DNA of 64,000 nucleotides from IMG/VR virus record IMGVR_UViG_3300049216_000067; one strand, given 5' to 3'. Position 1 is the stretch's first letter. Each line of letters opens with the position of its first letter. A program made the translations under genes and the position numbers. Origin of the DNA: a virus. This document shows, piece by piece, positions 23,608-63,879 of this stretch. The notes under the pieces are model-generated. The model made no database searches. It was not told where the DNA came from and saw only the letters and a list, made by a program, of their open reading frames with translations.

Positions 23608-24135
23608 CTATTTGGCGTATCCATTAGGGAATTTTGGTCTGTTGGTACCGTTCAGGCGCGGACCAACCTTATTGATTCTACCGCGCCTCCAACCTTCCGG
23701 AATGAAGCCGTCTCTACATTGCATAGATGTGATTCCATCGGTTATCCAGAAGAAACCATTGTTGTGAGTGTGACCTATCATCCAAGGAAGAGGTTTGCCT
23801 TTCTTAGCTTTGGAAATAGCCTCAGCTATCTCTGGTGTGCATGGATGTCCGTCGCCTCCAGGAGTCATATTATAGCCACCACCGTAGCTTCTATATTCAG
23901 CTATAAAATATTTCTCCATTTCCTTTGCTGATAACTCATCAAATGCAGTGAAGATATGATCAACAATGAAAGTTGACCAACCATGTTTTCTTATAGATTG
24001 ATGAAGTATATAAAACGAGCCACCTTTAGCAGAACTTTGATGTGCTGCAAGTCTCTGGGTTAGGCTAGTGGACGTTATACCGACATAAATCTTGCCGGTG
24101 TTCCTGTTTGTCAGACGGTAAATGATATAGTGCAT
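23608..24135 (-). CDS. GIY-YIG (Seg-like) homing endonuclease
   Basis: IIYRLTNRNTGKIYVGIT..RLAAH..GYNMTPGGDG, NUMOD-like ISKAKKGK tail. Confidence 0.85.
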   Translation of the reverse strand: MHYIIYRLTNRNTGKIYVGITSTSLTQRLAAHQSSAKGGSFYILHQSIRKHGWSTFIVDHIFTAFDELSAKEMEKYFIAEYRSYGGGYNMTPGGDGHPCTPEIAEAISKAKKGKPLPWMIGHTHNNGFFWITDGITSMQCRDGFIPEGWRRGRINKVGPRLNGTNRPKFPNGYAK

Positions 24136-24202: not shown

Positions 24203-25555
24203 TTATTTCAAATTAATAACAATGAACTTCCTGTAGTAGCAGTTGGTGTTAGCTGTGATAGCACCAAGTTGCTGGTTAGTTCCACCTGCGTATGGGTTTG
24301 CAACCAAACCGTAACGAGTCTTGAAGCCGATCTTTGGCTGGAAGGTGTTAGGGTCGATAGCACGAACCATCTGAAGAGGAACGTAAGGGCAATAGAACAA
24401 TCCTGCGTCGTATGCAGTTTGACCCTTGTAACCAACGGTTACGTAGTCAGCACCAGATACAGAGTAAGGATCGGCATAAACTTTCATACGACCGAACAAG
24501 GTACCGCAGAAAGTGTTGCCACTGTCGTCTACGTTCAAGTTGGTGTTGTTGGTCAATGCAGACTGGTAATCAAGCAAACCACTCATTGCCAACGCAGATG
24601 CGATGTCAGTAGAGCAGATAAGCATGTTACCCTTACCACGCCTAGTGTCCTTACCAATCTTGTTTGCTTCACGCTCAATTTGCATGATCAAAGACTTGTA
24701 AGTTTCAACCTGCCAACGGCCTGCGGTGTCACCACCAGTCAATGCAAGGTTGTAGATACCAGCGACGTTAGAACCGAACTGCGCACCAACGTTAGCTGTT
24801 GCGTAGATTGTACGGATAACTTCACGGTTGATTTCGGCCAAAATTTCGGTTGAAAGAATGTTGCTCAACTCGGTTTCTGCGTCAAGACCGTGAATTGCCT
24901 TCAAGTCTTGTGCAAGTTCCAAGGTGTAATCAGACTTCAAACCACGAGTGTTTGCAGTAACTGTAACCTTTTCGATGCTGAAACCCATGGTTCCCCATGC
25001 GTATGCACCGCCAAGATCTTCACCAACACCTGTTGGGAAACCGTAACCAGTGTTAGCCAAGCCAAAGCTTGAGTTTGCTGGGTTGGTGTTCTGTGTACCG
25101 TCAAATGGACTGAAGGTACCGTTACCAGACACCTGGTTGTTTGCTTCGTTGTACAAAGCTTCAACACCGAAGGTGGTGTCGTTAGCAAGGGTGTACTTAG
25201 AACGCATTGCAAAGATCAAACCTGTTGGACCAGTCATTGGCTGAACACCGCATACGTCGTATGCGATCAAGTTAGGCAAAGACCTACGAACAAGAGAGAT
25301 CAAGATTGGGTCGAAACCGGCTACTGGACCAGCTGCTGCGGCAGAACCGCTGTAACCACCAGTACCTGCTGCCATTGCTGGAGCAGTTTCTGTCAAGAAT
25401 CCGTTGTTAATACGTGCTTCTTCACGAGCAGCCTTTTCTTGGTTTTCAAGAATAACGGCAGTGACGGCACGACGGTACTTGTCACCAATTGGTGCAAGAC
25501 CTGGGTGGTCCATAACTGGAGACCACTTCTTTTGTAGATTTTCTGAAAGATACAT
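24203..25555 (-). CDS. 23: Major capsid protein gp23
   Basis: KWSPVMDH, AVILENQE, GFDPILISLVRR, GVQPMTGPTGLIFAMRS, FQPKIGFKTRYG. Confidence 0.99.
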   Translation of the reverse strand: MYLSENLQKKWSPVMDHPGLAPIGDKYRRAVTAVILENQEKAAREEARINNGFLTETAPAMAAGTGGYSGSAAAAGPVAGFDPILISLVRRSLPNLIAYDVCGVQPMTGPTGLIFAMRSKYTLANDTTFGVEALYNEANNQVSGNGTFSPFDGTQNTNPANSSFGLANTGYGFPTGVGEDLGGAYAWGTMGFSIEKVTVTANTRGLKSDYTLELAQDLKAIHGLDAETELSNILSTEILAEINREVIRTIYATANVGAQFGSNVAGIYNLALTGGDTAGRWQVETYKSLIMQIEREANKIGKDTRRGKGNMLICSTDIASALAMSGLLDYQSALTNNTNLNVDDSGNTFCGTLFGRMKVYADPYSVSGADYVTVGYKGQTAYDAGLFYCPYVPLQMVRAIDPNTFQPKIGFKTRYGLVANPYAGGTNQQLGAITANTNCYYRKFIVINLK

Positions 25556-25576: not shown

Positions 25577-26791
25577 TTAAAGTTGAGTCCTAGAAATAGC
25601 ATTTACATAAGCGTCCATAAGAGGGGAATTTTCCGTCTCGTTCTGGGCAGGAACTTCACTTTCTGCTAGAGCAATAGAATTAACTGTTGCTGGTTGCTGA
25701 TTGTCCTGCTTCACCTTGTTGAAATAGCTCTCACGAACTACGGTCAACTTTTTCTTGTAATCGTCTTCTGTGACGAACTCAACTCCCTCTGCGAGAGTCT
25801 TTACCTTGACTGCTTGTGTGGCGGTGAGACCTTCACAAACCTTAACAAGGATTTCTTCCTTCTTTGCTTCGTTGATCTTCTTTCCAAGATCAATTTGTGC
25901 ATTGATGCTGTTATTTAGCTTTTCTGTAAGTTCTGCAATTTCTTGTGTCAAGCTTTCAACAACATCTACCTTCTCAGAAGGCAATTCGATGTAGTGATCT
26001 TCAAACAAATTCTTCAAACCGCTAAGAAAATCTTCAACGATTTCGGCTTTCAAACCAGACTCAATAGCAACTTGATTTTCTTCCTTCCATTCGTTGACCA
26101 TAGCGTCTAAATATTCTTCGACCTGTTCTTCCATTTCAGCAGTGATTTCTTCAACAGATTCTTCTGCTGCTGCAATGATTTCGGCTTCAAGTTCTTCTGC
26201 AACCATAACGGCACGGGCAAGAACTGCGGCTTCAAAAATAGTGGTAAGCTTGGTCTTGAAAGATTCAGAGAATGTTTCGCCAGAAAGAATCGCATCGATA
26301 TCTTCCTTAACGTCCTTTTCCTTCATCTTTTCTTTCATTCTGGCAACTTTTTCTGCCTTTGCTTCTGCAAGCTCTTCGTCAGTAAGTTCAAATTCTTCCT
26401 TAGTAGGATGCATGTATTCATGACCGGCAGTAGATACGCCTTCGCCATTGTTTTCATCTGGAGATGTATGTGCGCCAGCACCTTGAAGAGAAGCTTTTGC
26501 AGCTGCTTCACGACCACCACCGGCAATCTTCAAATCGTGCATTGGCTCATTGCTATCTTGTGTAGCAGATTCGCCAGGAGGTGTTGCAACACCACGGTGT
26601 GCAGCGGTTACCTTACCAATCTCATTGCCCTGTGGGTCCTTATGAGTTGCACCACCAAGATCTACACGACCTTGTGCTTGTGGTTGCGGTCCACGTACCG
26701 TTTCAAGGTCTTGCATAGGCATTCTTGGAGAATCGGTACGAGACTTGTTTAGTACTTCTGCTGCTGCTTCGGTTAGTGACTTGTGAGACAT
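25577..26791 (-). CDS. 22: Prohead scaffold protein gp22
   Basis: FKTKLTTIFEAAV, WKEENQVAIESGLK, LKNLFEDHYI, MDAYVNAISR. Confidence 0.95.
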   Translation of the reverse strand: MSHKSLTEAAAEVLNKSRTDSPRMPMQDLETVRGPQPQAQGRVDLGGATHKDPQGNEIGKVTAAHRGVATPPGESATQDSNEPMHDLKIAGGGREAAAKASLQGAGAHTSPDENNGEGVSTAGHEYMHPTKEEFELTDEELAEAKAEKVARMKEKMKEKDVKEDIDAILSGETFSESFKTKLTTIFEAAVLARAVMVAEELEAEIIAAAEESVEEITAEMEEQVEEYLDAMVNEWKEENQVAIESGLKAEIVEDFLSGLKNLFEDHYIELPSEKVDVVESLTQEIAELTEKLNNSINAQIDLGKKINEAKKEEILVKVCEGLTATQAVKVKTLAEGVEFVTEDDYKKKLTVVRESYFNKVKQDNQQPATVNSIALAESEVPAQNETENSPLMDAYVNAISRTQL

Positions 26792-26848: not shown

Positions 26849-27301
26849 CTATTTCTTCATCCCAGCGGAAATCAATTCGCCGTGATTTGATGGTAGGCCA
26901 CCATTAGCTATCGTCTTACCCTTTATCCAAGGGATTTGCTTGTTTCGCTTGTGCCAATTCTTAATCTTTTCTATAGCCTTTACGGACATTCTGGTTCCTG
27001 TTCTATCAGGAATCATGTTATCTTTGTTTGTTAATTCATAGTTTGGATACATCAATCTGAATCGTTCTATACAGAATTTCTCTAGTTTCAAAGCTTCTTC
27101 TGAAGACAACTCGGTGGCTACAAATTCGACTCGATGTTCAAGTTCCAAAGATCTAATAGTATTAATAATTCTACATTTATCCTTATTGTGCTTATCTCTT
27201 GTTCTGCCATGTACAAATGCTCTATCGCCAGTTCCTTTACCAAAGTAGAATGGGACATCATTGAATGGCTCGACTAGAGCGTATACATAACAATCATTCA
27301 T
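26849..27301 (-). CDS. GIY-YIG (LEM3-like) homing endonuclease
   Basis: YVYALVEP..PFYFGKGTGDR..H, EALKLE, LTN, PWIKGKT tail; between genes 21 and 22. Confidence 0.75.
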   Translation of the reverse strand: MNDCYVYALVEPFNDVPFYFGKGTGDRAFVHGRTRDKHNKDKCRIINTIRSLELEHRVEFVATELSSEEALKLEKFCIERFRLMYPNYELTNKDNMIPDRTGTRMSVKAIEKIKNWHKRNKQIPWIKGKTIANGGLPSNHGELISAGMKK

Positions 27302-27948
27302 TAAAGCTTGCTCAAATAATTTTGCATGATAGACAAAGCAACTTCTTCTAATTGATGTTGTTTAGCTTCTTTGATTGTCTTATTCATTTCAGCAATATCC
27401 GCCTCGACAATCACCCCATTAGCCCATATCCATTCGCGACCTTCCATCATGGCATTTACAAAAGCATCTGGAGCAGAAGGATCTGAAACAATATCACCGG
27501 CAGTAGCAAGGTGATAATCACTTTGGACGATGTTCAAACCATTAGATTCTTTAAGAGATCCCATACCACGGGTTGAAGTACCAAATTGAACGTTGTCATC
27601 AATTAAATGTTTGACGCATTCACCCATTGGGGTGCTAAGGATCTTAGAGCGACCGATCCAATTGTATTTGTCTTCTTTCAAAGAAAGGATTTTGTGGCTA
27701 GCACGATCATAATTAATAGTTGGGCTAGTTGGGTGACCTAATTCACCAACGGCACGGTTAGTGTCGATCATTTCTTTAATATAACGGTCAACTTCTGGCT
27801 TAAGGCTTTCGTACTTGTACATACGATTGTTTCTATTGCGTACTTCAGATTGAATATAGATACCCTCAATAAAATACTGCTTAGGTTTACCGTCCTTACC
27901 TTCTTCGATAAGAACTCTTGAATCGAATGCTTCTGTTAATAGTTTCAT
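27301..27948 (-). CDS. 21: Prohead protease gp21
   Basis: MKLLTE, RNRNNRMY, RAVGELGHP, STRGMGSL, DIVSDPSAPDAFV. Confidence 0.97.
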   Translation of the reverse strand: MKLLTEAFDSRVLIEEGKDGKPKQYFIEGIYIQSEVRNRNNRMYKYESLKPEVDRYIKEMIDTNRAVGELGHPTSPTINYDRASHKILSLKEDKYNWIGRSKILSTPMGECVKHLIDDNVQFGTSTRGMGSLKESNGLNIVQSDYHLATAGDIVSDPSAPDAFVNAMMEGREWIWANGVIVEADIAEMNKTIKEAKQHQLEEVALSIMQNYLSKL

Positions 27949-27950
27949 TT

Positions 27951-28214
27951 TTACAATCCCAAGCTATCCCTGCGTTTTAAACTTCTTAATCTTTTGATCA
28001 ATGATCTAGCGGCTTTTGCCCTTCTCTTCAACTTACCTTTTCTTGCACCCATTCTTCTATGTAGTTTTTCTGCGGCAGACATACGTACCAACTTACCACC
28101 ACGCAAAGCGTATCCTTTGACACCACTTCTCTTGATGTTTCGTTGTATCTTTCCACCACGAATACGCGATCTGATTCGCTTTATCCTGGCTCCTGCATGT
28201 GCCTTAAAACTCAT
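27951..28214 (-). CDS. Basic prohead core protein, gp68-like
   Basis: Extremely R/K-rich; RSLKRRDSLGL terminus; directly upstream of gene 21. Confidence 0.65.
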   Translation of the reverse strand: MSFKAHAGARIKRIRSRIRGGKIQRNIKRSGVKGYALRGGKLVRMSAAEKLHRRMGARKGKLKRRAKAARSLIKRLRSLKRRDSLGL

Positions 28215-28603
28215 TTCAAAACCTTTCGAACTATTCCAATAGTGCCTTTCTTGATACCTGAAGAAATGCCCCTGCTAATAAGGTTATAAACACCTTGTCC
28301 AGCTAGACTATTTTTCTTAGCAACCTTCTTTGGTTTAGCTATTTTGACTGGTTTTGGTTTCGGTAATTTAACTACACTAGCTTGTTTTTTAAGCTTAGTA
28401 GTTGCTTTCCTAACACCTGCCAATCTCTTCTTCAACTTACCTTTATGATAAGCATTAGCTTCAATATCTTTCTTCGGAACCTTTTCCTTAGCTGATGCAT
28501 GATGAGCAATCTCTTTGCTAGACTTTTTGATGTAAGAAGCAAGTGTTGTTTTGCTTATTTCATCTAGCCTATCTTCTCTGAGATATGCCCTAAAAAGTTT
28601 CAT
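28211..28603 (-). CDS. Putative internal head protein (basic)
   Basis: MKLFRAYLRE leader, LDEISKTTLASYIKK module, Lys-rich. Confidence 0.6.
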   Translation of the reverse strand: MKLFRAYLREDRLDEISKTTLASYIKKSSKEIAHHASAKEKVPKKDIEANAYHKGKLKKRLAGVRKATTKLKKQASVVKLPKPKPVKIAKPKKVAKKNSLAGQGVYNLISRGISSGIKKGTIGIVRKVLK

Positions 28604-28605
28604 TG

Positions 28606-29103
28606 TTAAGCTGGCTGCTTAGCCAATCCAAAGAAGTTATCGTTGTATTGTGCGTAAACATTTGCGTAACCACCACCAGCACCACCTTCTTTAATCAATG
28701 TAAGGATCAAAGAGAATGAGTCGAACGGTTCAGCGCCTTCGATAAACAAGTTGATATCACCACTGCCACCGGCAAGGTTTGCAGTGTTTGATGCAAGAGG
28801 GTTTGGCATGTAGGCAACAAATTGGCTAGATGTTTTACCACCCAAAATCAACATATCGTTGTTTGTTGCTGCTCCACCAGCTGCCCATTGAATAGAGCAA
28901 TATCCGTTAGCAAAACCTGCTGCGTACTGCACGGTTGTTGCTGAAAGAATGCAAGGCAAACTAGAGTTTGCATAGCTGAGTGTATTAGCTTGAACGATCT
29001 TGGTGTTACTGTTAGTTGCAGCGGTAAAATAACCGACAACCTTGACCACAGTCTTATCACCTGTATCAAACAAAATTTGAACTTCTGGTACGTTTGGTGC
29101 CAT
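28606..29103 (-). CDS. Virion structural protein (head cluster)
   Basis: QILFDTGDKTVVKVVG..GDI..SLILTLIK; A/G/N/T-rich like the structural genes. Confidence 0.55.
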   Translation of the reverse strand: MAPNVPEVQILFDTGDKTVVKVVGYFTAATNSNTKIVQANTLSYANSSLPCILSATTVQYAAGFANGYCSIQWAAGGAATNNDMLILGGKTSSQFVAYMPNPLASNTANLAGGSGDINLFIEGAEPFDSFSLILTLIKEGGAGGGYANVYAQYNDNFFGLAKQPA

Positions 29104-29104
29104 G

Positions 29105-30316
29105 TTATTTTCCTACCTTCATATGTTTAGCGATGAATGCGCTAATCTTTTTGATTCCGCTAGCACCACTATTTATTAAGCTTTCTATCTTCTTCTTGTT
29201 CTGACGATTGACCTTACCGTGAAGGTGCATTACTTGATGCGCTGTTGGATGATCGATCATTGCTGTTGAACCATCTCTGAAACGAACAGTTGCAGGATGT
29301 TGTGTTTTCATAATAGTATGCAAAGAATGAATTGTTGCTTCCATAATAGTATCGTTTTCAACTTCTTCTTTTTTTATTTTGTTGATAGCACGATAAAATC
29401 CAAAAGCTCTTTGTGTTTCTCTTCCTTTCCTATCTTTACCGTGTGCATCAAGGTTTTTGTGGATGTATGATTTGAGAGTTTTCTGTGAAAGTTCATTAAC
29501 AATCTCTTCACCCAATGGGTTTAACGTCTTTCCGTGCTTTTTTATGTGACCAGCAAGAGCCTTTTTGGCCCAGTCTAGACGCTGTTTTGCTGTGTCAAAA
29601 TTGTCTTCTTGACGAGAAAGATCACGCTTGAACATTGCACGTTCTTTGCGAATCTTTTTAAGTTCAGGTGACATGGCTTCATCAATACCGATTTGAGTTT
29701 CTTCAAATTTAGTATTAAGTTTGTGTACCAATGTGGCTATTGCTTTACCTTTTTTATCACCATCATTTTTACCGTGAACGGTCCAAGCCGCATAGCTAGA
29801 ATTAGCCTTATGCGCTTTTGGGTTTTCTTTTACGCGAAGATGTGAATACCTATGACCCAAACCTGCATTAATATCTCGTGAATCTTTCCCTAAATCCCTA
29901 ATTTCATCTATAGTCATCATTGATTCTGCTGTCAATTCGTGACCCTTATAAACTCTCTTATTGCCTTTAACATCAGAGAATTCGACAAAATGCTTGTTTG
30001 GATCTTTAGAGAAATGTCCAGTGACGGCACCAACTTCACCATGATATTCATCATCTGGTTTGTTGATTCTTACTTTAGTAAATTTTGGATGAGTTTCTTC
30101 TGAAGTTGTTGCTATGTTTGTGTGCTTTTTACCCAACTGACCAGGTGTGTAAGGAATAGCTACATCGATCTTCAAATTGTCATTTGTATATTGAGCTATA
30201 CTTTGACCACCAGGAAATGTACGAATAGCTTTACGACGCAACACTAGCATTACCGGTGGGTCGTTAAATGCTGTTGATTCGGTTATTTCCTTGAGTAGAT
30301 CGCTGAATTTCTTCAT
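29105..30316 (-). CDS. Putative head core/internal protein, modular
   Basis: DPPVMLVLRRKAIRTFPGGQSIAQY N-domain, VRFRDGS..IDHPTA C-domain, internal basic modules incl. VNELSQKTLKSY. Confidence 0.6.
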   Translation of the reverse strand: MKKFSDLLKEITESTAFNDPPVMLVLRRKAIRTFPGGQSIAQYTNDNLKIDVAIPYTPGQLGKKHTNIATTSEETHPKFTKVRINKPDDEYHGEVGAVTGHFSKDPNKHFVEFSDVKGNKRVYKGHELTAESMMTIDEIRDLGKDSRDINAGLGHRYSHLRVKENPKAHKANSSYAAWTVHGKNDGDKKGKAIATLVHKLNTKFEETQIGIDEAMSPELKKIRKERAMFKRDLSRQEDNFDTAKQRLDWAKKALAGHIKKHGKTLNPLGEEIVNELSQKTLKSYIHKNLDAHGKDRKGRETQRAFGFYRAINKIKKEEVENDTIMEATIHSLHTIMKTQHPATVRFRDGSTAMIDHPTAHQVMHLHGKVNRQNKKKIESLINSGASGIKKISAFIAKHMKVGK

Positions 30317-30318
30317 GG

Positions 30319-32607
30319 TTACTCGTGAACTTCATCCCTGTGGTGTGCTTCCCAATGGGCAGCTGCCTGATGACGATCATGTGTGGTAAACATGTGATGC
30401 CATGCAGTGTGCTTATCGCCATGTTGTTTGTGATAAGATTGTGCAGCACGGTCAGCGTGATACTTCCAAAGTTTTTTTGCCTTTTCTGGATCGTAAGAAC
30501 CTTTCTTGGCTTTCTTTTTCAAATTAGAAATAATTGGCTGATGAGAACTGTGGTGCAAATGAGCATCATAGTCGGCATGAAGCACAAGTTCATGTGCAGC
30601 ATCTGACATTTCTTCGGTGATGGTTTCTTCTTTTGCTAATCTTTTATGATTTGTAGCTCTAAGAATTCCCCTATACCTTTTGCTAAATTTGTGCAAATGC
30701 TTGTTTGCTTCTTCACTTCCATGTTTAGATCTCATATGATCGACCTGACGATCTCCCATATCAGAAGCTGCATTACGAACGTAAGAAGCTAAAGTAGTTC
30801 TTGAAAGTTCATCGATAGTTTCAACACCTTCACCAACGTGAATAGGCATTGTTGAATAAACACCATGTTCTTTCTTTACATCAAATAGACCATGTGTTTT
30901 GCCTGAGCTAGGATCTTTAGCATGAAGATGTGCGTTGGCACCACGAAGAATTGTTTTAATTTTGTGACCACGAGATTGTGCGTGGTTAAGAAACTCATCT
31001 TGTGTGTGGAAAGCTTGATCGGCTTCGTAAATCAATTCAAAAAGACCTTCATCAATTTCTTCTTTTACAGACTTAGCGACACCATTGAAACGCTTTTCTT
31101 CTTTGCCGTTTAAAGGACCTGAACCAGACTTCAATTGATTGAGTGCTTTTTCACGATAAGACTTAAGAACTTTCTTTGAAAGTTCGCTTAATGGTTGTAC
31201 TTCTTCCTTGACATCATGTTCACCTTTTGAATGTATTCTTGTTTTCCAAGCATTGTTTGGATGATCGTCACGGCTAGGGTCTAATTTGTATTTCATAAGA
31301 CCAGATGGTCCAATGTTGTTGCGAACCTGACGAAGAGCGGCAGTGTCATCACCATGAGTGTGACCCTTTTCCCAATCAGTGTTTAACTTGTTTTTCCAAG
31401 TGCGACCGTGCTTTGTTGCATAACGGTGTAATGCTGCATGATGTTCTGGACCAAGTTCTTCAGTAAAGTACTCAGTACCTTCGTTCTGCTTGTCGTATTT
31501 TTTCTTAAACTTAAAACGTGCGGCACGCTTGCCCTTACCGTGTTCCTTGTGGTTTGGCTCATGCTTCTCGGTTTCTTCAGCCTTCAAACCGACTTCATCG
31601 GCACGAATGTTCTTACGACCTTTGATACGACGCAATGCTTTCTTCAAAGCTTCAACATAAGAAGATGTTTGGCTAGATGGGGCAGCTTGTGCTTTACGTT
31701 CAGCAGCAGCAATAGCCCTTTCAAGCTGTTCCTTACTGTCAGTGATCTTTTCGTTAACCGTTGTTTCTTCCTTAGTCAATTTCTTAGTAGCTGTTTCGAT
31801 ACCATTTTTACGCTTATCGGCCCACTTTGTTGATCTGTCATGAGCATAAATTGATTTAGCTTTTCCTTGTGCCCATCCAGCGCTATGAACTTCATTAGCG
31901 GACTTGTTGATGTAAGAACCGAGAGTCTTTTTGCTCAATTCGTTGATTGTGTCTTCTTTGATAGAATGCACTACGCCCTTTTGAAGTGTCGTGTTAAAAC
32001 TTCCACGACTATGCTTTCCGTATGGTTTTTCACCTTTTACATGTGCAACATAATGATCTTTAAATATAGTGTCATTGTGAACAACATACCCATGACGCGC
32101 AGCGTCAGTTTTCCAAGCATCGAGATCAGTGTGACGCTTCGTATGGGTTAGAATCTCGTCAGATGATTCTTGTACGTTTTCTTTCACAGCATGTCTTTTT
32201 ACTTCATGTTCTGCGGTGTTCTTAGCATCTTCTTTATCGTTACCGTGATAAGAAACTGGGCCTTCACCCATGTGCTTACCGTGTGCGTAGTGGTGAACAG
32301 AGTATTCTTCGTAATCTTTGTTGTAACGAACTTCCGCATGGTGCGCAGAACCAACAACTCCGTGCCTAGACACCATTCTGGTTCCAGTTACTGGAGATGC
32401 TTCATCAAGAACTTCTTCACCAACATGTCCAAAGTTTTGAGCAAAAATGGCCATTTTTTCAGCATGACCACCAGCAGCCTTACCCTTGGCAATATCTGCC
32501 GCAGTGATTGGTTCGTCAGGAGACTTACCTAACCAAGCATGAAACCCGCCTTTCTTTACATGAATGGCTAGATTCTTTTCTTCTAAAAATTGTTTGAATG
32601 AACTCAT
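30319..32607 (-). CDS. His/Lys-rich modular internal head (poly)protein
   Basis: MSSFKQFLEE leader; about 11 basic modules separated by acidic [ILV]xE linkers; located in the head gene cluster. Confidence 0.65.
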   Translation of the reverse strand: MSSFKQFLEEKNLAIHVKKGGFHAWLGKSPDEPITAADIAKGKAAGGHAEKMAIFAQNFGHVGEEVLDEASPVTGTRMVSRHGVVGSAHHAEVRYNKDYEEYSVHHYAHGKHMGEGPVSYHGNDKEDAKNTAEHEVKRHAVKENVQESSDEILTHTKRHTDLDAWKTDAARHGYVVHNDTIFKDHYVAHVKGEKPYGKHSRGSFNTTLQKGVVHSIKEDTINELSKKTLGSYINKSANEVHSAGWAQGKAKSIYAHDRSTKWADKRKNGIETATKKLTKEETTVNEKITDSKEQLERAIAAAERKAQAAPSSQTSSYVEALKKALRRIKGRKNIRADEVGLKAEETEKHEPNHKEHGKGKRAARFKFKKKYDKQNEGTEYFTEELGPEHHAALHRYATKHGRTWKNKLNTDWEKGHTHGDDTAALRQVRNNIGPSGLMKYKLDPSRDDHPNNAWKTRIHSKGEHDVKEEVQPLSELSKKVLKSYREKALNQLKSGSGPLNGKEEKRFNGVAKSVKEEIDEGLFELIYEADQAFHTQDEFLNHAQSRGHKIKTILRGANAHLHAKDPSSGKTHGLFDVKKEHGVYSTMPIHVGEGVETIDELSRTTLASYVRNAASDMGDRQVDHMRSKHGSEEANKHLHKFSKRYRGILRATNHKRLAKEETITEEMSDAAHELVLHADYDAHLHHSSHQPIISNLKKKAKKGSYDPEKAKKLWKYHADRAAQSYHKQHGDKHTAWHHMFTTHDRHQAAAHWEAHHRDEVHE

Positions 32608-32621: not shown

Positions 32622-33401
32622 TTAAGAAACCTGCTTAACGTGCTTAACGTCAACACCTTTGCTGCTGTGGTGAACAGAAAATTGATGCATTCCACCAGCA
32701 CCGGCTACGTAATAATGATGCTCAGCCTTGTCAGGATGAATTCCACCATGGTCCTTATGAATGCTATAATGTGGGTGTTCATAGTGAGTAAACGTTCCAC
32801 GGTGTGACACAGCAGGACAATGACCGGTTGCACAAGCGTGAACAGCATGGGACATGTGTTCAACTGTACCTGGAGAAATAATTTTTTCGTTTACTTCACC
32901 GTGGGGAATCACCTGTACAGATTCATCATGTTGCTTCTTGTCGTACTTCTTCTTCATCATCATACGAAGAGCACGCTTTCCCTTGCCAGCAGACTTTTGT
33001 TCATGTGGTTCAGGCTTTGGTGCAGTTTCTTCGTTGGTCTTACCAGGCATCTTTGCGTCAAAGGTACTGTTGTCACCAGGAACACTCCTTCCACCTTTTT
33101 CATGTGGAGAAGGCTTTTTGGTTACACCAGAAATGTGTGTACCACCTGGAGGCGCAATTCCTTCAGATGACTTGATATCGGTTGTATCAGGAAGACGGTC
33201 TTTACCAACCATGCCACCCTCGGCCTTAGTCTTAACACCACCAGCAGAGCTAGTAATGCCGTTTGGATTTTCAAGAAGAGTGCTTGCGATTTCAATCTTG
33301 GTCTCGGCCAATACTTGACCAACCTTGGCTTCTAGCCTTTCGGTTAAAGCTTTTTGAAAATTAACAGCATCTTTGTTGTGAGCAAGTTGTACTAGAGACA
33401 T
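32622..33401 (-). CDS. gp67-like prohead core protein with His-rich extension
   Basis: N-term DAVNFQKALTERLEAKV..KIEIASTLLE in the gene-67 position after the portal gene; CTAAATA late promoter at 33439-33445. Confidence 0.55.
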   Translation of the reverse strand: MSLVQLAHNKDAVNFQKALTERLEAKVGQVLAETKIEIASTLLENPNGITSSAGGVKTKAEGGMVGKDRLPDTTDIKSSEGIAPPGGTHISGVTKKPSPHEKGGRSVPGDNSTFDAKMPGKTNEETAPKPEPHEQKSAGKGKRALRMMMKKKYDKKQHDESVQVIPHGEVNEKIISPGTVEHMSHAVHACATGHCPAVSHRGTFTHYEHPHYSIHKDHGGIHPDKAEHHYYVAGAGGMHQFSVHHSSKGVDVKHVKQVS

Positions 33402-33457: not shown

Positions 33458-35086
33458 TTAGACAAGTTGATCAGCAACTCGCTTGTTTAATGACTTGGGA
33501 TCACCAACTGGCTTTTGTTCTTTAACTTTGCCATCAGCACCCATTTGTGGAGGTGGCTCGCCTGGTGGTGGGCCACCCATTAATGCGCCAGATTCCTTCT
33601 CCATGTCCTTGGCTTCTTTGTTGATTTGCTTCTTTTCGACAGCAATTTCTTCTTCATCCATACAAAGGATGTTTTTCTGAACCCAAAGGTGACTGTAATA
33701 CTTGCCAACAAACGGATCGACCAACATCAACGTGTTGATTCGATTTGTGATCATCTCGGCTTCTTTTAATTCTGTAAAATTGTTGTCAGTCTCAAATCGA
33801 TACTGAACATCCTGCTTCATTTCTGCCCATTCATCTAGGGTACAAACACCCTTAAGAACAAGCTGACGCTTTAATAGTTCATCAAACAAAATAGAGAAAC
33901 GGTTACGAAGTTTTTGAACAAACTTGTCAAACTTAATTTCATCACGGCTGATTTCAGAACTACGACCAAGGTTAAACCCTGTACCGGCTTCAAGACGGCT
34001 AATAGGAACGTTCAAAGCACGGTATAGCTTCTTTTCAAAGTACAACACAGCATCCATGTTGTCGAAACCTTGACCGGCAGGAAGGGTTGTAATTTCAGTT
34101 GACTTGCTGTCACCACCACGACGCGGCATCCAGAAGTCTTCAAGCATAGAAAAGTGTTTACGGTCATCACGGATTTCACCAGTACCGGCGTCATAAACCA
34201 ATTTGTTACGGAACTTGGTCATGACATCTTTCAAATATTGTTCTGCTTTAGCACGCGGCATGTTGCCAACGTCTACGTAAAACACACGCCTTTCAGGCGC
34301 TCTCGTGACCTTATAAATGACCGTTGCATCTTCGATGAATCTAAGCTGATTCATAGGGCGAATCGCTTTATGAAGGTAACTTAAGACCGTTGATTTGGCC
34401 GGATCAAATAAGCCAGAAGTTAAATGGATAACAGAGTCTTCAGATAGCTTTACGCCACCCGCAAAGTTACCGATAATTTGTGGAGTTTGAATGTTGTTGT
34501 TAACAATCTTTTCGTTGTAAAGATAGAACACTTCGATCTTGGTAATAACATCAACACCGTCTGCGTTCTTTTGTTTTGTGATATTACGAATCTTACGGAT
34601 ACGACGTGGGTCAATGAAGATCAATTGTTGGATACCGTCACGAGGTTTGTCTGGATCAATAACCACATTCCAATACGCACGACCATCGACATACCATCTA
34701 CGAAAAATTTCGGAACCAAACTTATTGAAGTCTAAAAGTTTGAGAACGTTGCCGAACTCATCGCGAATAAGCTTTTTGATGTTGTCTGGTTGATCTAGAT
34801 CATCAAGAACAATGTCTACAACCTTACCGTGCTCGTCATGGACGATAGCTTCGTTAATAATATCGTCAATGGCATTTTCCATTTCTGGCTGCATAGCCAT
34901 CGTGCGGTACTTAGAAAGAAGGTCAACTTCACTTCTGTAGCTGCCATCAAGGTCAACATATATTCCGTAATGCGCGCCAGAATTTATATTGACTGCACCG
35001 TCATCTAATGCAGGAGAAACTACACTTTCAGGGATTTCTTTTTCGTCATCCCTTGCAATAGTGAAGCCGAATAGCTTTAAAGCCAT
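33458..35086 (-). CDS. 20: Portal protein gp20
   Basis: LFGF, FRRWYVDGR, SYLHKAI, RAPERRVFYVDVGNMP, MLEDFWMPRR, ALNVPISRL. Confidence 0.99.
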   Translation of the reverse strand: MALKLFGFTIARDDEKEIPESVVSPALDDGAVNINSGAHYGIYVDLDGSYRSEVDLLSKYRTMAMQPEMENAIDDIINEAIVHDEHGKVVDIVLDDLDQPDNIKKLIRDEFGNVLKLLDFNKFGSEIFRRWYVDGRAYWNVVIDPDKPRDGIQQLIFIDPRRIRKIRNITKQKNADGVDVITKIEVFYLYNEKIVNNNIQTPQIIGNFAGGVKLSEDSVIHLTSGLFDPAKSTVLSYLHKAIRPMNQLRFIEDATVIYKVTRAPERRVFYVDVGNMPRAKAEQYLKDVMTKFRNKLVYDAGTGEIRDDRKHFSMLEDFWMPRRGGDSKSTEITTLPAGQGFDNMDAVLYFEKKLYRALNVPISRLEAGTGFNLGRSSEISRDEIKFDKFVQKLRNRFSILFDELLKRQLVLKGVCTLDEWAEMKQDVQYRFETDNNFTELKEAEMITNRINTLMLVDPFVGKYYSHLWVQKNILCMDEEEIAVEKKQINKEAKDMEKESGALMGGPPPGEPPPQMGADGKVKEQKPVGDPKSLNKRVADQLV

Positions 35087-35105: not shown

Positions 35106-35672
35106 TTAGACTGCTGCTGGTTGATAATCTCCAGCGCCAGCAGAAAGAAAGTACTGAACTGCAAGAGTTACAGTAAATTCTTCGACTTGATCATTGCTGC
35201 CCCAATCAAGTTCAATTGGAGAAACATCCGTTGGCCAAATGCCAATGAACTGATACTGATTGATTTGAGTGCCGTCTTTACCGTACTGAGTAACGGTAGC
35301 ATCAACACCGTAACCACCGTCGATGATTTCAGCAGCAGTATTACGAACGTTAAGAACTGGATCGTTAATACCATTTGCCCATTGTTCAAATGCTGAACGA
35401 ATGGTGAAGTTTTCATCGTTGATAACCTGAATTGTCCAGTCTTGATATTGACGGTTTCCAGCAAGCTTCACTTCCCTACCGAAATAGTAAAGTGGAGCGG
35501 TGCCGATTGTCGTACCTGGAAGCTGAGCAGCTTTAGCCTGGAAAGTTACCAATTGACCTGCTTGACCCGCCAAATTGACGTAAGAAGGGAATGGAAGTTG
35601 AATATCGAACAAGTTGGCACGAGCACCATCACCTGTAAGATTAGTCCTAAATTGAGTTACATCGAATGACAT
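35106..35672 (-). CDS. 19: Tail tube protein gp19
   Basis: GARANLF, AAQLPG, YFGREVKLAG, W..QVINDENF, EEFTVTL. Confidence 0.96.
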   Translation of the reverse strand: MSFDVTQFRTNLTGDGARANLFDIQLPFPSYVNLAGQAGQLVTFQAKAAQLPGTTIGTAPLYYFGREVKLAGNRQYQDWTIQVINDENFTIRSAFEQWANGINDPVLNVRNTAAEIIDGGYGVDATVTQYGKDGTQINQYQFIGIWPTDVSPIELDWGSNDQVEEFTVTLAVQYFLSAGAGDYQPAAV

Positions 35673-35696: not shown

Positions 35697-37436
35697 TTAC
35701 GCGATTCCAGACTGGCCAATAACTTCGTTGAAGCTGACTCCAGTTGCCACAGCAACGAAGTTCAACAAAATGAAGTTGATAGAACGGGCTGGCTGAACAT
35801 AGATGTCACCAACGAATTGGTTAGCATCGATAACTTCAGGTGTGTTGTTTGTGGTGTCGCAAACAACCTGGAACGCAGTGATACCACGCTGACCCTGGAT
35901 CGTTCTCAAATATGGGTTGATCAAACTGACAAACTGAGCACGAGTGAACGTGTCGTTGAATTCGAACAAGCTAGAACGTGCTGCAAGGCTAATCTGTTGT
36001 TCCATGACAATAAACAAACGACGCACGTTAATGTGGCTGAATGCAGAGTCATAGTTCAAGTGGGTCTTGTCACCGTAAAGAAGTGTTCCCTGGCCTGGAA
36101 GAGAAACAACCGGGTTGATTCCTGCCTGGTAAAGAGCATCACGGTCAGTTTGACCTGGGTTGTAAGCCAACTTCACAACGTTGTTGATCACACCACGCTG
36201 AAGACCAGCTGGAGACCACCATGGAGCGTTGGTTTGGTCGGTACGAGCGCAAAGACCAGCGATATCGCCGTTCAATGGAGTGTAACGGTACTTGTCGTTG
36301 TACTTGTCGTAACGGTACTTGTAACCGGTATCAAGAACAGCGTAAGAGTTGTAAGCAACATTTGCACCCCAAGCAAGTACTGGAGCAAGAGCACCAGAAG
36401 ATGTTTGATCAGCACTCAATGGAGCAGAACAGAATGCAACACAGTCCTTACGAACCGCAGCAACGTCTTGAATAGCGTAGTTCTGGACAACAGTGTTAGA
36501 AGTACCTGTCATCAACAAGTTAACTTGAACGAAGGTAGGATCTGCAAACAATCCAAGACCAGTTACCACGTTAGCAGAAGTTACTACACCGTTGTTTCCA
36601 TTAGCAAATTGTGCAACGTTTGCGCTTGCATCGTTACCGAATGAACCGGTTCCAATTTGTTGTGCTGTAGTGTTACCCCAACCAACAGTGTTAGAGCAAG
36701 GAACACCAACGTTGTAAATATAGTTAGATTGAGACCAAATGACTTCTTTGTAATAGTTTGCGTTACCGTATGCGTCAAGACCGTCCTTAAGACGAGAAAG
36801 ACCTTGGTAAACTTCAAGAACACTGTTTGCCTTGCCGGTGATCAAACCACCAGCATCCACAACAAGGATGTGAAGTTCGTCTCCTGTAACCTGACCATTG
36901 GTGACCTGAGCTACGTAAGGAGTTGTGTTTGGTGCCCATGAGAAATAGTTCGCATAGGTGTAGTAAGGGCTGGATGGGTTAGTAGCTGCCGCAGTCCATG
37001 CTGCACCGTTAGCGAATGTGATAACTGCAATGCTGTTTCCAAGACCGCCAGGGAAACGAGCAATGTAGTTGTTAGAAGCAAGTGTTGTATTATAGATACC
37101 GTTAAAATAAATTGTTGGGTTATCGATTTCGATAGCCACACCAGTGTTAGAACCGGTAGCATTCAACATGCCCGTACCTTGAGCACGAACAACATTCAAA
37201 TTGTTAGAGTAAGACAAAAAGTCAGCAGCTGTGAAAAAGCTTTCTGCTGTTGTGTCGTCAGGATCAGAGAAGATAGAATCTAATTGAACTTCGTTACTTA
37301 CCGGAGTCACATAGTTAACTGGACCCCAATTGAATGTACCAACAAAGCCACCAATAGAGGTTGCAACCGCTGGAATGGAAGTGGTTAGATCTGTTTCTGT
37401 AGTGCTGATGCCGGGACTGACAGGGAAATTTGCCAT
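35697..37436 (-). CDS. 18: Tail sheath protein gp18
   Basis: SPGISTTETD, WGPV, PLNGDIAGLCART, WWSPAG, INVRRLF, PARSINFILLNF. Confidence 0.98.
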   Translation of the reverse strand: MANFPVSPGISTTETDLTTSIPAVATSIGGFVGTFNWGPVNYVTPVSNEVQLDSIFSDPDDTTAESFFTAADFLSYSNNLNVVRAQGTGMLNATGSNTGVAIEIDNPTIYFNGIYNTTLASNNYIARFPGGLGNSIAVITFANGAAWTAAATNPSSPYYTYANYFSWAPNTTPYVAQVTNGQVTGDELHILVVDAGGLITGKANSVLEVYQGLSRLKDGLDAYGNANYYKEVIWSQSNYIYNVGVPCSNTVGWGNTTAQQIGTGSFGNDASANVAQFANGNNGVVTSANVVTGLGLFADPTFVQVNLLMTGTSNTVVQNYAIQDVAAVRKDCVAFCSAPLSADQTSSGALAPVLAWGANVAYNSYAVLDTGYKYRYDKYNDKYRYTPLNGDIAGLCARTDQTNAPWWSPAGLQRGVINNVVKLAYNPGQTDRDALYQAGINPVVSLPGQGTLLYGDKTHLNYDSAFSHINVRRLFIVMEQQISLAARSSLFEFNDTFTRAQFVSLINPYLRTIQGQRGITAFQVVCDTTNNTPEVIDANQFVGDIYVQPARSINFILLNFVAVATGVSFNEVIGQSGIA

Positions 37437-59933: not shown

Positions 59934-60011
59934 TTAGCGTCGATAGCTGCCAGTGTCGGTGACAGCAACGTAACAGGCGACGATTGCGGCAAACATTAAG
60001 AACATTGACAT
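59934..60011 (-). CDS. 25-aa hydrophobic peptide (not in the ORF track)
   Basis: MSMFLMFAAIVACYVAVTDTGSYRR behind AAAGGAGTACACCAT, identical to the leader of 60027-60239. Confidence 0.55.
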   Translation of the reverse strand: MSMFLMFAAIVACYVAVTDTGSYRR

Positions 60012-60026
60012 ATGGTGTACTCCTTT

Positions 60027-60239
60027 TTAGACAGTTTTGGACAATGAAACAATGTCAGTATCGTTTGACACTACATCGACGCGGCTTAAACCCGTGTAAA
60101 GAAATTTTTCCTTAATAATACGGTTCATTGCGCGGATTGCAGCGTTGCGCGTCGATGCCTCAATGCAAACAATGATGTTCCCGCTTGCATCGTAGCCAAT
60201 GGCATCATAAGTCTCGGTAGAGTCATAATCGCCTGACAT
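60027..60239 (-). CDS. Hypothetical protein
   Basis: Strong RBS AAAGGAGTACACCATATG. Confidence 0.7.
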   Translation of the reverse strand: MSGDYDSTETYDAIGYDASGNIIVCIEASTRNAAIRAMNRIIKEKFLYTGLSRVDVVSNDTDIVSLSKTV

Positions 60240-60279
60240 ATGGTGTACTCCTTTAAGTGAGAGTGATTTAACTTAATAG

Positions 60280-60525
60280 CTATTCGCGCCCATAGTCCCA
60301 GTCACCATGTTGCATCGCGTCTGCGGCATCTGCCTCGCCCTCGCGATAGGCGTCGATAATATCCCGGACGGCAATCTCCGGACTGCAATTGTACGAATTG
60401 ACATACTCGCACGCTTCCATAAACAGGGTTTCCATGTCCAAGTGATCCGGAAGCAACGCATCTTTAATGATGAGCATGATTGCCGCGTTTCGCGCTTGTA
60501 TCGACTGGTATACCGTGTCCGACAT
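60280..60525 (-). CDS. Acidic hypothetical protein
   Basis: AAAGGAG RBS; first gene behind a sigma54 motif. Confidence 0.7.
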   Translation of the reverse strand: MSDTVYQSIQARNAAIMLIIKDALLPDHLDMETLFMEACEYVNSYNCSPEIAVRDIIDAYREGEADAADAMQHGDWDYGRE

Positions 60526-60563
60526 GCTTTGTACTCCTTTGGAATTGATCCGTAGCTAGGATC

Positions 60564-60580
60564 ATGCAAGGGGCATGCCA
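60564..60580 (-). promoter_or_regulatory. sigma54 -24/-12 promoter
   Basis: TGGCATGCCCCTTGCAT, identical to 59828-59844. Confidence 0.8.
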
Positions 60581-60631
60581 ATTCAATCAGGGCACTAATA
60601 GGACGATTCTACCCCGCAATGTGACGCAAAG

Positions 60632-60646
60632 TGACGTAAATTGTCA
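60632..60646. promoter_or_regulatory. Candidate shared enhancer between divergent sigma54 promoters
   Basis: TGAC-GTAAATT-GTCA. Confidence 0.6.
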
Positions 60647-60728
60647 GTCGATTGACAATCAGGGGCACATTTTAACAAGTCGGCTCGTTAAATCTTTCAA
60701 TCAGCGGTCTAGTAGCCCTTGTTTTAGT

Positions 60729-60745
60729 TGGCACGATGTGTGCAT
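60729..60745 (+). promoter_or_regulatory. sigma54 -24/-12 promoter
   Basis: TGGCACGATGTGTGCAT (GG-N10-GC), 40 nt upstream of the DUF932 ATG. Confidence 0.75.
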
Positions 60746-60785
60746 AATCCTAATCGTCAGTCATTTCAAACAAGGAGATTCAAAC

Positions 60786-61841
60786 ATGTCACATCAGATT
60801 GCTAATCAAGCCAATGGTCAAGCTGCTGCGGTATTCAGTGCCTTAGAGGGCGCTGGCTGGACAGGTCTCGGTCAAGAGATTCCGGCAGACATGGCCAATG
60901 ATCCCCGCGCCATTGCCAAATTGTGCGGCGCTAACTTCACTGTTGAAAAACGAGAATGCTACTTTAAGAGTGCTGAAGGCACCTATAAGGCCGCGCGCGG
61001 AAAGGATGTGTTAGTCCGCACCGATACGGATCGCATGCTGAGTGTCGTGTCCGACAATCGCTATCATGTCACTAATCGTCAGCCTGTCGATATCTTCGAA
61101 GCTTTCCGCGACGAACTGGCACAGAATAATCTGACAATCTCGCATGGTGCCGTGCTCCGAGGTGGCGCTGATATCGTCGTTTGCGCCTTGCTTCCCTCAG
61201 AGTTTGATATCGTGGTAGGCAACGGTGACCGAATCAAGCAATACGTCACCGCTAGCACGGGCTACAATGGCCACGGCACGCGCGTCACTAAGTCAGGCTA
61301 TCGCGTCGTGTGCGCTAACACGCATGCCGCGAACATTGCGGATGCTGAGGCAAAGGATAAAATCCGCACCATTCGCGCTAGCACGCAATTGGAGCGCGAT
61401 TCTATCGCTAACCTGATTGTCGATGTGAAAAAGCTTGTGGACGCAGAGCGCGCGACCTTCGATGCCATGGCCAATACTCGCATGTCTAACGAAGATGTAG
61501 CGCGCTACTTCGCGGATGTGCTGGAATTCAACATCGCGGATCTGAACCGTACCAATGCGAACGGCAAGAAACTCGTTAGCACTAAAACTCAAAACATCGT
61601 GAATCAATTGCTTGCGAGCTATGCGAATGCTCCGGGCGCGGACATGGCCATGGGGACCGCATGGGGCGCATTCAACGCGGTGACCTACTACGCGACGCAT
61701 CTTAAGACTGTGCGCGATACCAGCGGTTCAGGTGAGTCTGCGGCTCGCGTCGCGTCTAACCTGAATGGGGACGCGGCTCAAATGAAATTGCGTGCCTTGC
61801 AGCTAGCGGCAAGCTACTCGGATATCGCAGTAGCCGCGTAA
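60786..61841 (+). CDS. DUF932 (TIGR03299-like phage/plasmid) protein
   Basis: WTGLG, LVRTDT, GAVLRGG, RVVCANT, GTAWGAFNAVTYYATH; AAGGAG RBS before MSHQI. Confidence 0.85.
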   Translation: MSHQIANQANGQAAAVFSALEGAGWTGLGQEIPADMANDPRAIAKLCGANFTVEKRECYFKSAEGTYKAARGKDVLVRTDTDRMLSVVSDNRYHVTNRQPVDIFEAFRDELAQNNLTISHGAVLRGGADIVVCALLPSEFDIVVGNGDRIKQYVTASTGYNGHGTRVTKSGYRVVCANTHAANIADAEAKDKIRTIRASTQLERDSIANLIVDVKKLVDAERATFDAMANTRMSNEDVARYFADVLEFNIADLNRTNANGKKLVSTKTQNIVNQLLASYANAPGADMAMGTAWGAFNAVTYYATHLKTVRDTSGSGESAARVASNLNGDAAQMKLRALQLAASYSDIAVAA

Positions 61842-61849
61842 TGACTCAC

Positions 61850-61880
61850 GGCGCGGGGACCGTGAAACCCGCGCCCTTTT
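61850..61880 (+). terminator. Intrinsic terminator
   Basis: GGCGCGGG..CCCGCGCC-CTTTT. Confidence 0.7.
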
Positions 61881-61887
61881 CTTAAAG

Positions 61888-61930
61888 TGTGAAGTCTGAC
61901 ACGCATTTTAAGGAAAGGGTTTAATAGAAT
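61888..61930 (+). promoter_or_regulatory. CRP-family class II promoter candidate
   Basis: TGTGA-AGTCTG-ACACG centred at -41.5 relative to a TAGAAT -10 (61925-61930); no -35 consensus. Confidence 0.55.
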
Positions 61931-61966
61931 TCTCTTAACACGCAACGGACACAAGGAGATATTAAT

Positions 61967-62554
61967 ATGTTAAACATCAAGGGCGCTTTCGTGGTCATCA
62001 AACAGTCTGGCGTCGAGCCGGTCATCCTTGGCGAGCGCCAGTATGTCGGCTATATGGAGCGCGTGACGATTGTAGGCTTTGACAAGGCTAACCATTTCGT
62101 ATTCGGGGCCGGTACGATTGCCGCGTTGCCTTGCACGCAAGCGTGCATGGAATCCGTAGCCCTGAACTATGCCGATACCGAGAAGCACGGCAAAATGGTC
62201 AAGGCAATCTGTGCGCGCATTGCGCTCGGTATGCCGCTAGGCAACGGCAAGGATATCGGGGAGGGTGGCTTGGGCATCAAGTCGCCTGTAGACGCGCCTA
62301 AGTCGCCTAATGGCGGTTCGCGCGTCTCGGTCCCCGATTCAATCAACGCCTAACCCAAGGAGAATATTATGGAAAATAAACTAGTCAAGGAATTGCGAGA
62401 CATCTCATATGAGATAGACGGTATTGCCGCTGACTTAGCGGCAGGGGATATCGACCCAGCAAAAGCCGCTGAAACCCTGGCGAACGTTGCCATGGGCTTG
62501 CGCATTGGATTGAATGCACTCACACGCTCGGTTCCTGACTTAAACAACGCCTAA
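61967..62554 (+). CDS. Two hypothetical proteins (61967-62353, 62369-62554)
   Basis: AAGGAG RBS in front of each. Confidence 0.7.
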
Positions 62555-62571
62555 CGAAAGGAGCATATATT

Positions 62572-62931: not shown

Positions 62932-62965
62932 CAATTAGTGTCACATTGTGACGGCACATTGTGAC
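62929..62965. promoter_or_regulatory. Candidate enhancer
   Basis: TGAC-AATTAGT-GTCA followed by CACATTGTGAC twice. Confidence 0.6.
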
Positions 62966-63026
62966 ACTTTTAAACATCGAGCAATTGAAACTGGCCTACT
63001 AGACCGACGATTGAATGATTTAGACT

Positions 63027-63043
63027 TGGCACGCCGATTGCAT
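63027..63043 (+). promoter_or_regulatory. sigma54 -24/-12 promoter (consensus)
   Basis: TGGCACGCCGATTGCAT matches TGGCACG-N4-TTGCW. Confidence 0.88.
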
Positions 63044-63080
63044 ACTCTTAGTCAGTAGTAACGAATTGGGGGATTAACGA

Positions 63081-63836: not shown

Positions 63837-63879
63837 AGTTTAATTAACCCTCAATTGTAACTCACAAGGAGATTATATT

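Follow-up and report, generated by a model that had tools for sequence, protein, structure and literature searches.

We analysed a stretch of 64,000 nt, one strand of the IMG/VR virus record IMGVR_UViG_3300049216_000067 (hereafter the window), which is part of an uncultured, distant T4-like myovirus. An open reading frame (ORF) on its minus strand, at 30319-32607 with the stop codon, encodes a protein of 762 residues, p762, and has its own AGGAG ribosome site. The features of this protein and of its relatives suggest that p762 is probably targeted to the capsid and cut there into several fragments that are retained, and we consider it reasonably likely that it is a precursor of T4-type internal head proteins (IPs) built as a polyprotein. 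The protein comprises a leader, 11 modules and 10 acidic linkers, contains 8.8% His and 11.9% Lys, and has a net charge of +18. Its gene is placed inside a nearly gap-free run of genes, between those of the portal gp20 and the prohead protease gp21. The earlier note on this DNA had claimed that one gene loads a set of about 11 distinct mini-proteins into the head, where gp21 would free them by trimming both ends of each at paired sites. This interpretation is supported in part: the comparative evidence speaks for a capsid-targeted polyprotein, whereas the paired trimming is doubtful and the count of 11 is an upper bound.

The first ten residues of p762, MSSFKQFLEE (32578-32607; all features of p762 and all head genes are on the minus strand), end in L-E-E and are similar to the capsid targeting sequence (CTS) known from T4. 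There, gp21 cleaves after Glu at L/I-X-E, the first 10 residues of IPIII are enough for targeting to the head, and the core proteins gp22, gp67 and gp68 are chopped into many pieces by gp21 at L/I-x-E sites (PMC9026906, PMC3012670). In the T4 genome (NC_000866) the leaders read MKTYQEFIAE/ in ipII and ipIII and MKTFKEF...ITE/ in ipI, where the slash marks the cut, known or predicted. The window leaders MSSFKQFLEE/ (p762), MKKFSDLLKE/ (p403) and MKLFRAYLRE/ (p130) resemble these, which is a likeness of pattern and not the result of a statistical test. Across the whole window the leader pattern is found only in these three adjacent genes and in one unrelated match, and the same type of leader starts 38 of 215 relatives of p762. 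The maturation site of the major capsid protein gp23, FLTE/AEIGG in the T4 genome, is conserved as FLTE/ in the window.

Behind the leader, basic blocks alternate with short acidic linkers as the earlier note had described, and all ten linkers that it quoted are present. The linkers separate blocks of 31-90 residues, most of them basic, with net charges of -1 to +9 and 0-17 His each. Module 1 (residues 11-61; 32425-32577) is helical and carries the motif ITAADIAKGKAAGGH; it is found mid-chain in the homologue P0009, and behind a gp67-like N-terminus in P0098 and P0099. The linker VGE/EVLDE/ (residues 62-69; 32401-32424), an insertion hot spot among homologues, leads to module 2 (residues 70-140; 32188-32400), predicted as a beta sheet plus a helix, and the linker VKE/NVQE/ (residues 141-147; 32167-32187), with Val at P3 in both sites, to module 3 (residues 148-215; 31963-32166), which stands first after the leader in P0006. 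After the linker IKE/DTINE/ (residues 216-223; 31939-31962) comes module 4 (residues 224-279; 31771-31938), the first copy of a helical-hairpin family with the signature LSKKTLGSYI, here called LSKK. The linker EETTVNE/ (residues 280-286; 31750-31770) precedes modules 5 and 6 (residues 287-376; 31480-31749), a helical part and a basic KRAARFKFKKKYDK tract, the latter also present in the neighbouring p259, with the spacer LKAEE (residues 341-345) between them. The linker GTEYFTE (residues 377-383; 31459-31479) has no [LIV]-x-E and is the place of a 75-residue insertion in the homologue P0002; it is followed by the helical module 7 (residues 384-465; 31213-31458), with a predicted local distance difference test score (pLDDT) of about 90. 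The linker VKE/EVQPLSE/ (residues 466-475; 31183-31212) and module 8 (residues 476-513; 31069-31182), a short LSKK copy, are followed by a second insertion hot spot, VKE/EIDE/GLFE/LIYE/ (residues 514-528; 31024-31068), and by module 9 (residues 529-590; 30838-31023), a helix plus beta strands. Finally, the linker VGE/GVETIDE/ (residues 591-600; 30808-30837) leads to module 10 (residues 601-658; 30634-30807), the third LSKK-type hairpin, and the linker KEETITE/E (residues 659-666; 30610-30633) to module 11 (residues 667-762; 30322-30609), a His-rich domain of four helices that is autonomous and more widespread than any other module. Contrary to what had been proposed, the modules are not all distinct: the blocks 224-286, 476-516 and 601-665 are paralogues of the one LSKK family, and the roughly 11 modules belong to 8-9 families. 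The blocks 287-345 and 346-383 usually travel as a pair in homologues.

The motif [LIV]-x-E occurs 18 times in p762, compared with 9.6 ± 2.8 in shuffled sequences (p=0.0035), and pairs of it within 8 residues occur 8 times, compared with 0.8 (p about 5e-5). All 18 copies are within the 101 residues of the leader, the linkers and the C-terminal end, while the 661 residues of module interiors contain none (4.2 expected). The module borders were drawn at the linkers, and the edges of the homology blocks agree with them. In 17 other ORFs of the window, used as a control, the observed/expected ratio of the motif is 1.15, with no depletion.

The same motif marks the junctions of the homologues. We located the starts of LSKK modules by the core pattern of the module itself, leaving the upstream residues unused: [LIV]-x-E directly precedes 222 of 224 distinct starts, with Glu at P1 in all 224, while P3 is L in 117, I in 81 and V in 24 cases and P2 is free. 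Fourteen LSKK starts come directly behind a 10-residue N-terminal leader, as in MKTFKQHLTE/LSKK. A motif ending no more than 9 residues upstream is also present at 99 of 106 module 11 starts and 28 of 31 module 2 starts, against a background of 2% per position. Since the motif is found before LSKK modules as well as before the unrelated modules 11 and 2, it belongs to the junction and not to one module family.

The homology search called for by the earlier note revealed a large family in which modules are shuffled, added and lost at the linkers. Word-indexed searches gave 58 proteins about as long as p762 and 52 that were shorter, and an exhaustive search gave 2070 representative clusters at E up to 0.001, 438 of them at 1e-10, all metagenomic. 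Eleven modules could be mapped in the homologues, where their order and number vary and where they are joined at the same motif; module 11 may be last, central or first, and LSKK modules reach eight copies per protein. In the closest relative, P0002, which is 93% identical over the matched stretches, module 3 has been lost as a cassette cut at the linkers. In a global alignment of 11 relatives, 51 of 93 borders of long indels are within 6 residues of a linker (29% expected), which is only an indicative figure, given that the aligned sequences share ancestry and that replaced modules are misaligned by MAFFT. Comparison of these homologues shows that modules are gained, lost and exchanged in evolution at the linkers, and the gene thus works as a cassette rack.

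Modules are also found outside such long proteins, as genes of their own that start with a leader of this type, and behind gp67-like N-termini (P0097-P0099, P0101, P0106). In P0075 module 11 occupies residues 58-152, ahead of a T4_CASP scaffold domain at 179-411; the embedded module is free of the motif, which abounds on both sides of the module and in the scaffold part (for P0075, P0078 and P0068 the gene context was taken from IMG/VR loci). The window gp22 has a 160-residue N-terminal extension at the spot where module 11 is inserted in the relatives P0075, L007 and L048. In the 40 T4-like IMG/VR loci that also contain a head gene, proteins with module 11 are encoded between gp20 and gp21 in all but three cases: the gp22 fusions of L007 and L048, and an ORF between gp21 and gp22 in L070. 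Stand-alone forms of module 11, with 134-138 residues, are present in many shorter contigs without T4-type head genes (L031, L032, L034, L035, L050-L052 and others), and in the one examined, a 33.6-kb contig, the gene is between the portal and scaffold genes (L034:9902-10306). Judged by these gene arrangements, the head-gene address of module 11 extends beyond the T4 group, and the module keeps 60-80% identity across very different phages.

Searches of 50,697 phage records with p762 and module 11, at the nucleotide and protein levels, gave no cultured relative; for p762 there was no match at the DNA level, and the only protein match was a weak one of a 55-residue fragment to module 7, from a faecal contig. 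A search with p130 gave marginal matches only. The cultured T4-like Caulobacter phage Cr30 encodes a 682-residue 'hypothetical protein', gp064 (YP_009098822.1; NC_025422.1 29635-31683; L087:5762-7810), which starts with the leader MRSKILAE/, followed by an LSKK-type module and further modules, with linkers of the SENLEE and EEMINE types. In Cr30 this gene is located away from the head cluster.

The AlphaFold model of p762, computed with 12 sequences, has a predicted template modelling score (pTM) of 0.24 and no global fold, and the single integrated domain that would have spoken against the earlier note was not seen. Confident stretches correspond to modules 2, 7 and 11 (pLDDT mostly 70-93 in 10-residue blocks; about 57-81 in module 2), and modules 9 and 10 are moderate (about 50-74). 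Values below 50 were obtained for residues 59-74, 145-291, 340-382, 446-477, 509-533, 577-606 and 651-665, which include most linkers as well as modules 3, 4 and 6. Folded alone, with 30 sequences, module 11 is predicted as a four-helix domain with a pLDDT of 96.4 and a pTM of 0.86. In BFVD the modules match phage proteins that stand alone and have 60-115 residues (target TM-scores 0.7-0.8).

Functional assignments are few. Pfam searches with the whole p762 and with ten modules gave nothing credible at E up to 1, and neither Pfam nor PHROG revealed a peptidase domain in p762. Module 11 has no relative in Pfam, PHROG or the PDB, and its profile gave no match when run against PDB sequences. Foldseek searches of the PDB with module 11 and with the full model gave nothing at E up to 0.001, and the best VIA-align Z for module 11 was 6.0, a value that helical proteins reach in general. 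In the ESM Atlas there was no usable match for module 11, and only helical-hairpin look-alikes for p130. With the full model, VIA-align related module 2 to MmoD (Z 7.4) and module 10 to generic helical hairpins only. None of these PDB comparisons gave a clue to function. Module 2 further matches phrog_7884 (E 2.9e-9, model positions 14-65 of 66), which groups small phage proteins with no function assigned, and is 34% identical (E 3e-9) to the 65-residue VO98_015, the product of the third gene from the left end of the T7-like Pseudomonas phage phiPsa17; a further likeness is to one of a series of small genes in Limnohabitans phage DC31. In T7-like phages the left genome end is transcribed first. 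The likeness of module 2 to a left-end gene fits, but does not show, the delivery of a ready-made early function.

Several observations weigh against the release of the modules as separate proteins. The homologues are related, and the junction counts are therefore not independent events; the depletion of the motif from module interiors is modest (P about 0.009) and partly circular; and the linkers LKAEE and GTEYFTEE have no [LIV]-x-E. The gp23 maturation site, in the window and in 19 distinct sequences of relatives, has L, I or M at P3 but never V, while Val is at P3 in 8 of the 18 motifs of p762, and because of this the motifs VGE, VKE, VQE and VNE are doubtful as cut sites. Most pairs have such a motif as their first site, and the linker 141-147 has one at each of its two sites, which makes the proposed trimming of both module ends doubtful. 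With L/I sites only, the predicted large products are residues 11-69, 70-218, 224-475, 476-520, 529-600, 601-665 and 666-762; although 11 blocks are seen, 11 released proteins is then an upper bound, since the strict sites give about 7 large fragments. As for module 11, the head gene cluster of L034 shows no prohead protease and the module also occurs without any leader, from which it follows that cleavage is not needed for its function; module 11 may have a role linked to the head or portal that is independent of cleavage.

Part of this evidence agrees with a different explanation, in which p762 stays in the capsid as a chain of beads on a string that loses its leader only, or nothing, the linkers being flexible spacers and the hydrophobic-x-Glu motif the start of the first helix of each module. 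The sequence [LI]-D-E-L-S-K-K-T-L has the spacing of an amphipathic helix, and in the AlphaFold model the first helix of module 10 (residues 595-629) runs through the IDE/LS junction; because the predicted helix spans the junction, the motif could be part of the module and not a cut site, and P3 to P1 could be read as part of the LSKK module. There are also precedents, since the cutting of Alt, a large internal protein of T4, is limited to the region close to its N-terminus (PMC9026906), and all but one of the protease cuts identified in phage SPN3US give N-terminal propeptides. However, the same motif is found at variable distance before modules 2 and 11, which are unrelated, is identical to the junction at the leader, a site of cleavage in T4, and is missing from the module interiors. 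Modules are moreover found within gp22 and after gp67-like N-termini, that is, in counterparts of proteins that T4 gp21 chops, and a chain of 762 residues would need to unfold to leave the head, whereas T4 IPI is described in a review as small enough for passage through the portal of about 30 Å in a folded state (PMC9026906). We regard such a chain as unlikely.

It is still less probable that p762 is an accessory scaffold or core protein, fully degraded by gp21 and expelled before DNA packaging like gp22, gp67 and gp68, with modules that have no role after assembly. Its gene is located with those of the core, the core proteins of T4 receive many cuts, and the window gp22 has 19 [LIV]-x-E sites, but these occur about once every 20 residues, whereas in p762 the sites are confined to the linkers and cores of 31-90 residues are free of them. 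The modules are basic and His-rich, which would suit retention with DNA, while gp22 has a net charge of -38. In addition, module 11 folds by itself and is strongly conserved between phages, and the T4_CASP profile (PF25623), which matches the window gp22 and P0075, does not match p762. Finally, a non-virion, late cytoplasmic multidomain protein, for instance a binder of nucleic acids or metals merely encoded in the head cluster, is highly improbable: the packaging of p762 is itself a prediction, His-rich proteins can bind metals and the Cr30 homologue is encoded outside the head cluster, but the leader resembles the T4 CTS, the gp20-gp21 position is conserved in the 40 loci with the three gp22-linked exceptions, modules are fused to scaffold and gp67-like proteins, and stand-alone module 11 is encoded between portal and scaffold in an unrelated phage.

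For the processed polyprotein we propose a mechanism whose steps are each inferred from the T4 precedent. p762 would be made late, along with the portal, core, protease and scaffold proteins, and its 10-residue leader would take it into the scaffolding core of the prohead. Once activated, gp21 would cut after Glu at L/I-x-E in the leader and in the acidic linkers, and the module interiors, free of the motif and self-folding, would survive as separate small basic proteins, about 7 fragments with L/I sites only and up to 11 if Val is accepted. The fragments would stay with the packaged DNA and probably exit with it at infection. As a guess, the repeated Lys-rich LSKK hairpins and the basic tracts could act as DNA counter-ions, whereas single-copy modules such as 2 and 11 could each serve a particular purpose, either in the head or in the host cell just after infection. 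A counter-ion role fits the Lys-rich tail of p130 and the strongly basic LSKK modules. Roles of the modules in DNA condensation, anti-defence or takeover, which the earlier note had put forward, would be conjecture, the one hint being the likeness of module 2 to a left-end gene of T7-like Pseudomonas phages. Among the internal proteins of T4, the standard example of phage proteins that are injected along with the DNA, IPI* counteracts restriction.

A broader scenario, which we find possible but rather doubtful, combines these elements. Uncultured aquatic T4-like phages would use one leader and a code of protease-cut linkers as a plug-in rack, in which any small protein, including homologues of genes that other phages express first after infection, could be inserted at a linker and would be loaded into the head in a fixed ratio, freed by gp21 and injected ready-made. 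Such proteins could thus form an 'early gene set' at the protein level that acts before any transcription, and the extreme His content could provide a pH-switchable DNA binding, by which the cargo would release the DNA in the cytoplasm.

Around p762, the gene order on the minus strand is tail sheath, tail tube, gp20, p259, p762, p403, p165, p130, p87, gp21, a small ORF, gp22 and gp23. The tail sheath (35697-37436) and tail tube (35106-35672) were assigned by size and position, and the portal gp20 (33458-35086), the first gene of the packed run, by size and gene order, with homologues in the same position in related contigs. The protease gp21 is at 27301-27948, where the earlier note had placed it; it matches PF03420 (6.5e-31), and its alignment to the T4 gp21 structure 5JBL shows that the catalytic His and Ser are retained. 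The scaffold gp22 (25577-26791) matches PF25623 over residues 161-399 (2.4e-65), and gp23 (24203-25555), with the predicted maturation site FLTE/TAP, is 60% identical to cyanomyovirus capsid proteins.

Between portal and protease, p259 (32622-33401) has a weakly gp67-like N-terminus, a basic tract like that of module 6, shared with p762 at E 8e-6, and a His-rich C-terminal part. It gives a weak match to phrog_1064 'prohead' (E 0.0067), and the assignment to gp67 is tentative: the sequences are collinear, but the pairwise BLAST with T4 gp67 is not significant (E 3.3). The LSKK family recurs in p403 (29105-30316), which has the leader MKKFSDLLKE/ITE/, one LSKK module and further blocks, and makes up p130 (28211-28603), where the leader MKLFRAYLRE/DRLDE/ and a stand-alone LSKK module are followed by the Lys-rich tail; p130 matches residues 216-284 of p762 at E 9e-10. 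The His content is 8.8% in p762, 8.9% in p259 and 5.7% in p403, compared with 0.4-2.3% in gp20 to gp23; family-wide it has a median of 5.1% and a maximum of 15%, the excess being common to half of the family. The Arg/Lys-rich p87 (27951-28214) is possibly gp68-like, with a C-terminal end that resembles that of T4 gp68, a tentative assignment given that the pairwise BLAST is not significant (E 83). The p87 orthologue of the sister phage L002 (11106-11384) has a CTS-type leader, MKSFKQYLSE, and the window copy begins directly with the basic part MSFKAHAGARIK. The non-basic, His-free p165 (28606-29103), with no leader and no family match, sits amid the internal-protein cluster and is kept in L002 (10616-11104).

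Two small ORFs interrupt the head block, much like segD in T4, one in the gp21/gp22 gap (26849-27301) and one after gp23 (23608-24135), both on the minus strand. The second matches PF01541 (GIY-YIG), and the first, without a Pfam match, is GIY-YIG-like by eye alone. The window shows no enrichment of the T4 late promoter TATAAATA, with 3 copies found and 2.75 expected; one copy precedes gp22. At 60001-64000 the G+C content is 0.50, up from about 0.40-0.44, and the large ORFs turn to the plus strand, among them that of a DUF932 protein at 60564-61841.

If the polyprotein reading is true, such phages would carry a head cargo that greatly exceeds the three IPs of T4 in size and in combinatorial variety, and the protease motif of three residues would also serve in evolution as a joint for recombination. 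Metagenomic families of small proteins with no assigned function, hundreds of them in the 2070 clusters matched by p762, would gain an address in the capsid interior and a delivery route, and nature would provide a model of how a single gene can fill T4-type capsids with several proteins. Caulobacter phage Cr30 offers a cultured system where the idea is directly testable.

Literature searches gave no published description of such polyproteins, and several known systems share some of their features. Polyvalent proteins, known from phages and conjugative elements, carry many unrelated domains per polypeptide and were proposed to enter the host with the DNA and to be released as separate units (PMC5512222; Iyer, Burroughs, Anand, de Souza and Aravind 2017). 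p762 has their '2 to 15 distinct domains in one polypeptide', but lacks their repertoire (ArdC-N, methylases, MPTase, ParB-like and others). Their domains are enzymatic or anti-restriction and their release is thought to occur via an embedded zincin-like peptidase, whereas p762 has neither, the protease being a separate gene, and differs also in its CTS-type leader, its motifs that fit the prohead protease and its modules of only 30-95 residues. In the giant phages phiKZ, 201phi2-1 and SPN3US, proteases of the gp21 type cleave proteins of the head interior behind the Glu of a three-residue motif, frequently at multiple sites. These inner-body and ejection proteins have no sequence relationship to p762, and their multiple cuts clear long N-terminal propeptides to leave one mature fragment, while the motifs of p762 separate folded modules. 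Cr30 gp064 shares with p762 the leader, the LSKK modules and the type of linker, but its gene is outside the head cluster and the LSKK modules are the only ones in common.

The closest parallels are in T4 itself. The core proteins gp22, gp67 and gp68 have the same operon position, and relatives of p762 modules are fused to gp22 and to gp67-like N-termini, although the core proteins are acidic or degraded to peptides, whereas the p762 blocks are site-free, basic and autonomously folding. IPI, IPII, IPIII and Alt have a short leader of the same pattern, ending in L/I-x-E, in a T4-type phage with gp21, and the internal proteins are small and basic; the window likewise combines a CTS-pattern leader with gp21 (Peptidase_S77) and a gp22 scaffold core. 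The set of internal proteins is highly variable between related T4-type phages (PMC3012670), as it is here. In contrast to p762, the T4 loci are scattered and not inside the gp20-gp21 block, the mature parts have no sequence similarity to p762, and the His content is about 1-2% (2 His in each of the three IPs). Each of the T4 genes yields a single protein through a single cut, whereas p762 has one leader, about 11 modules and further motif-bearing linkers. By these comparisons p762 would work like the IP/CTS system of T4, but with many modules behind one leader.

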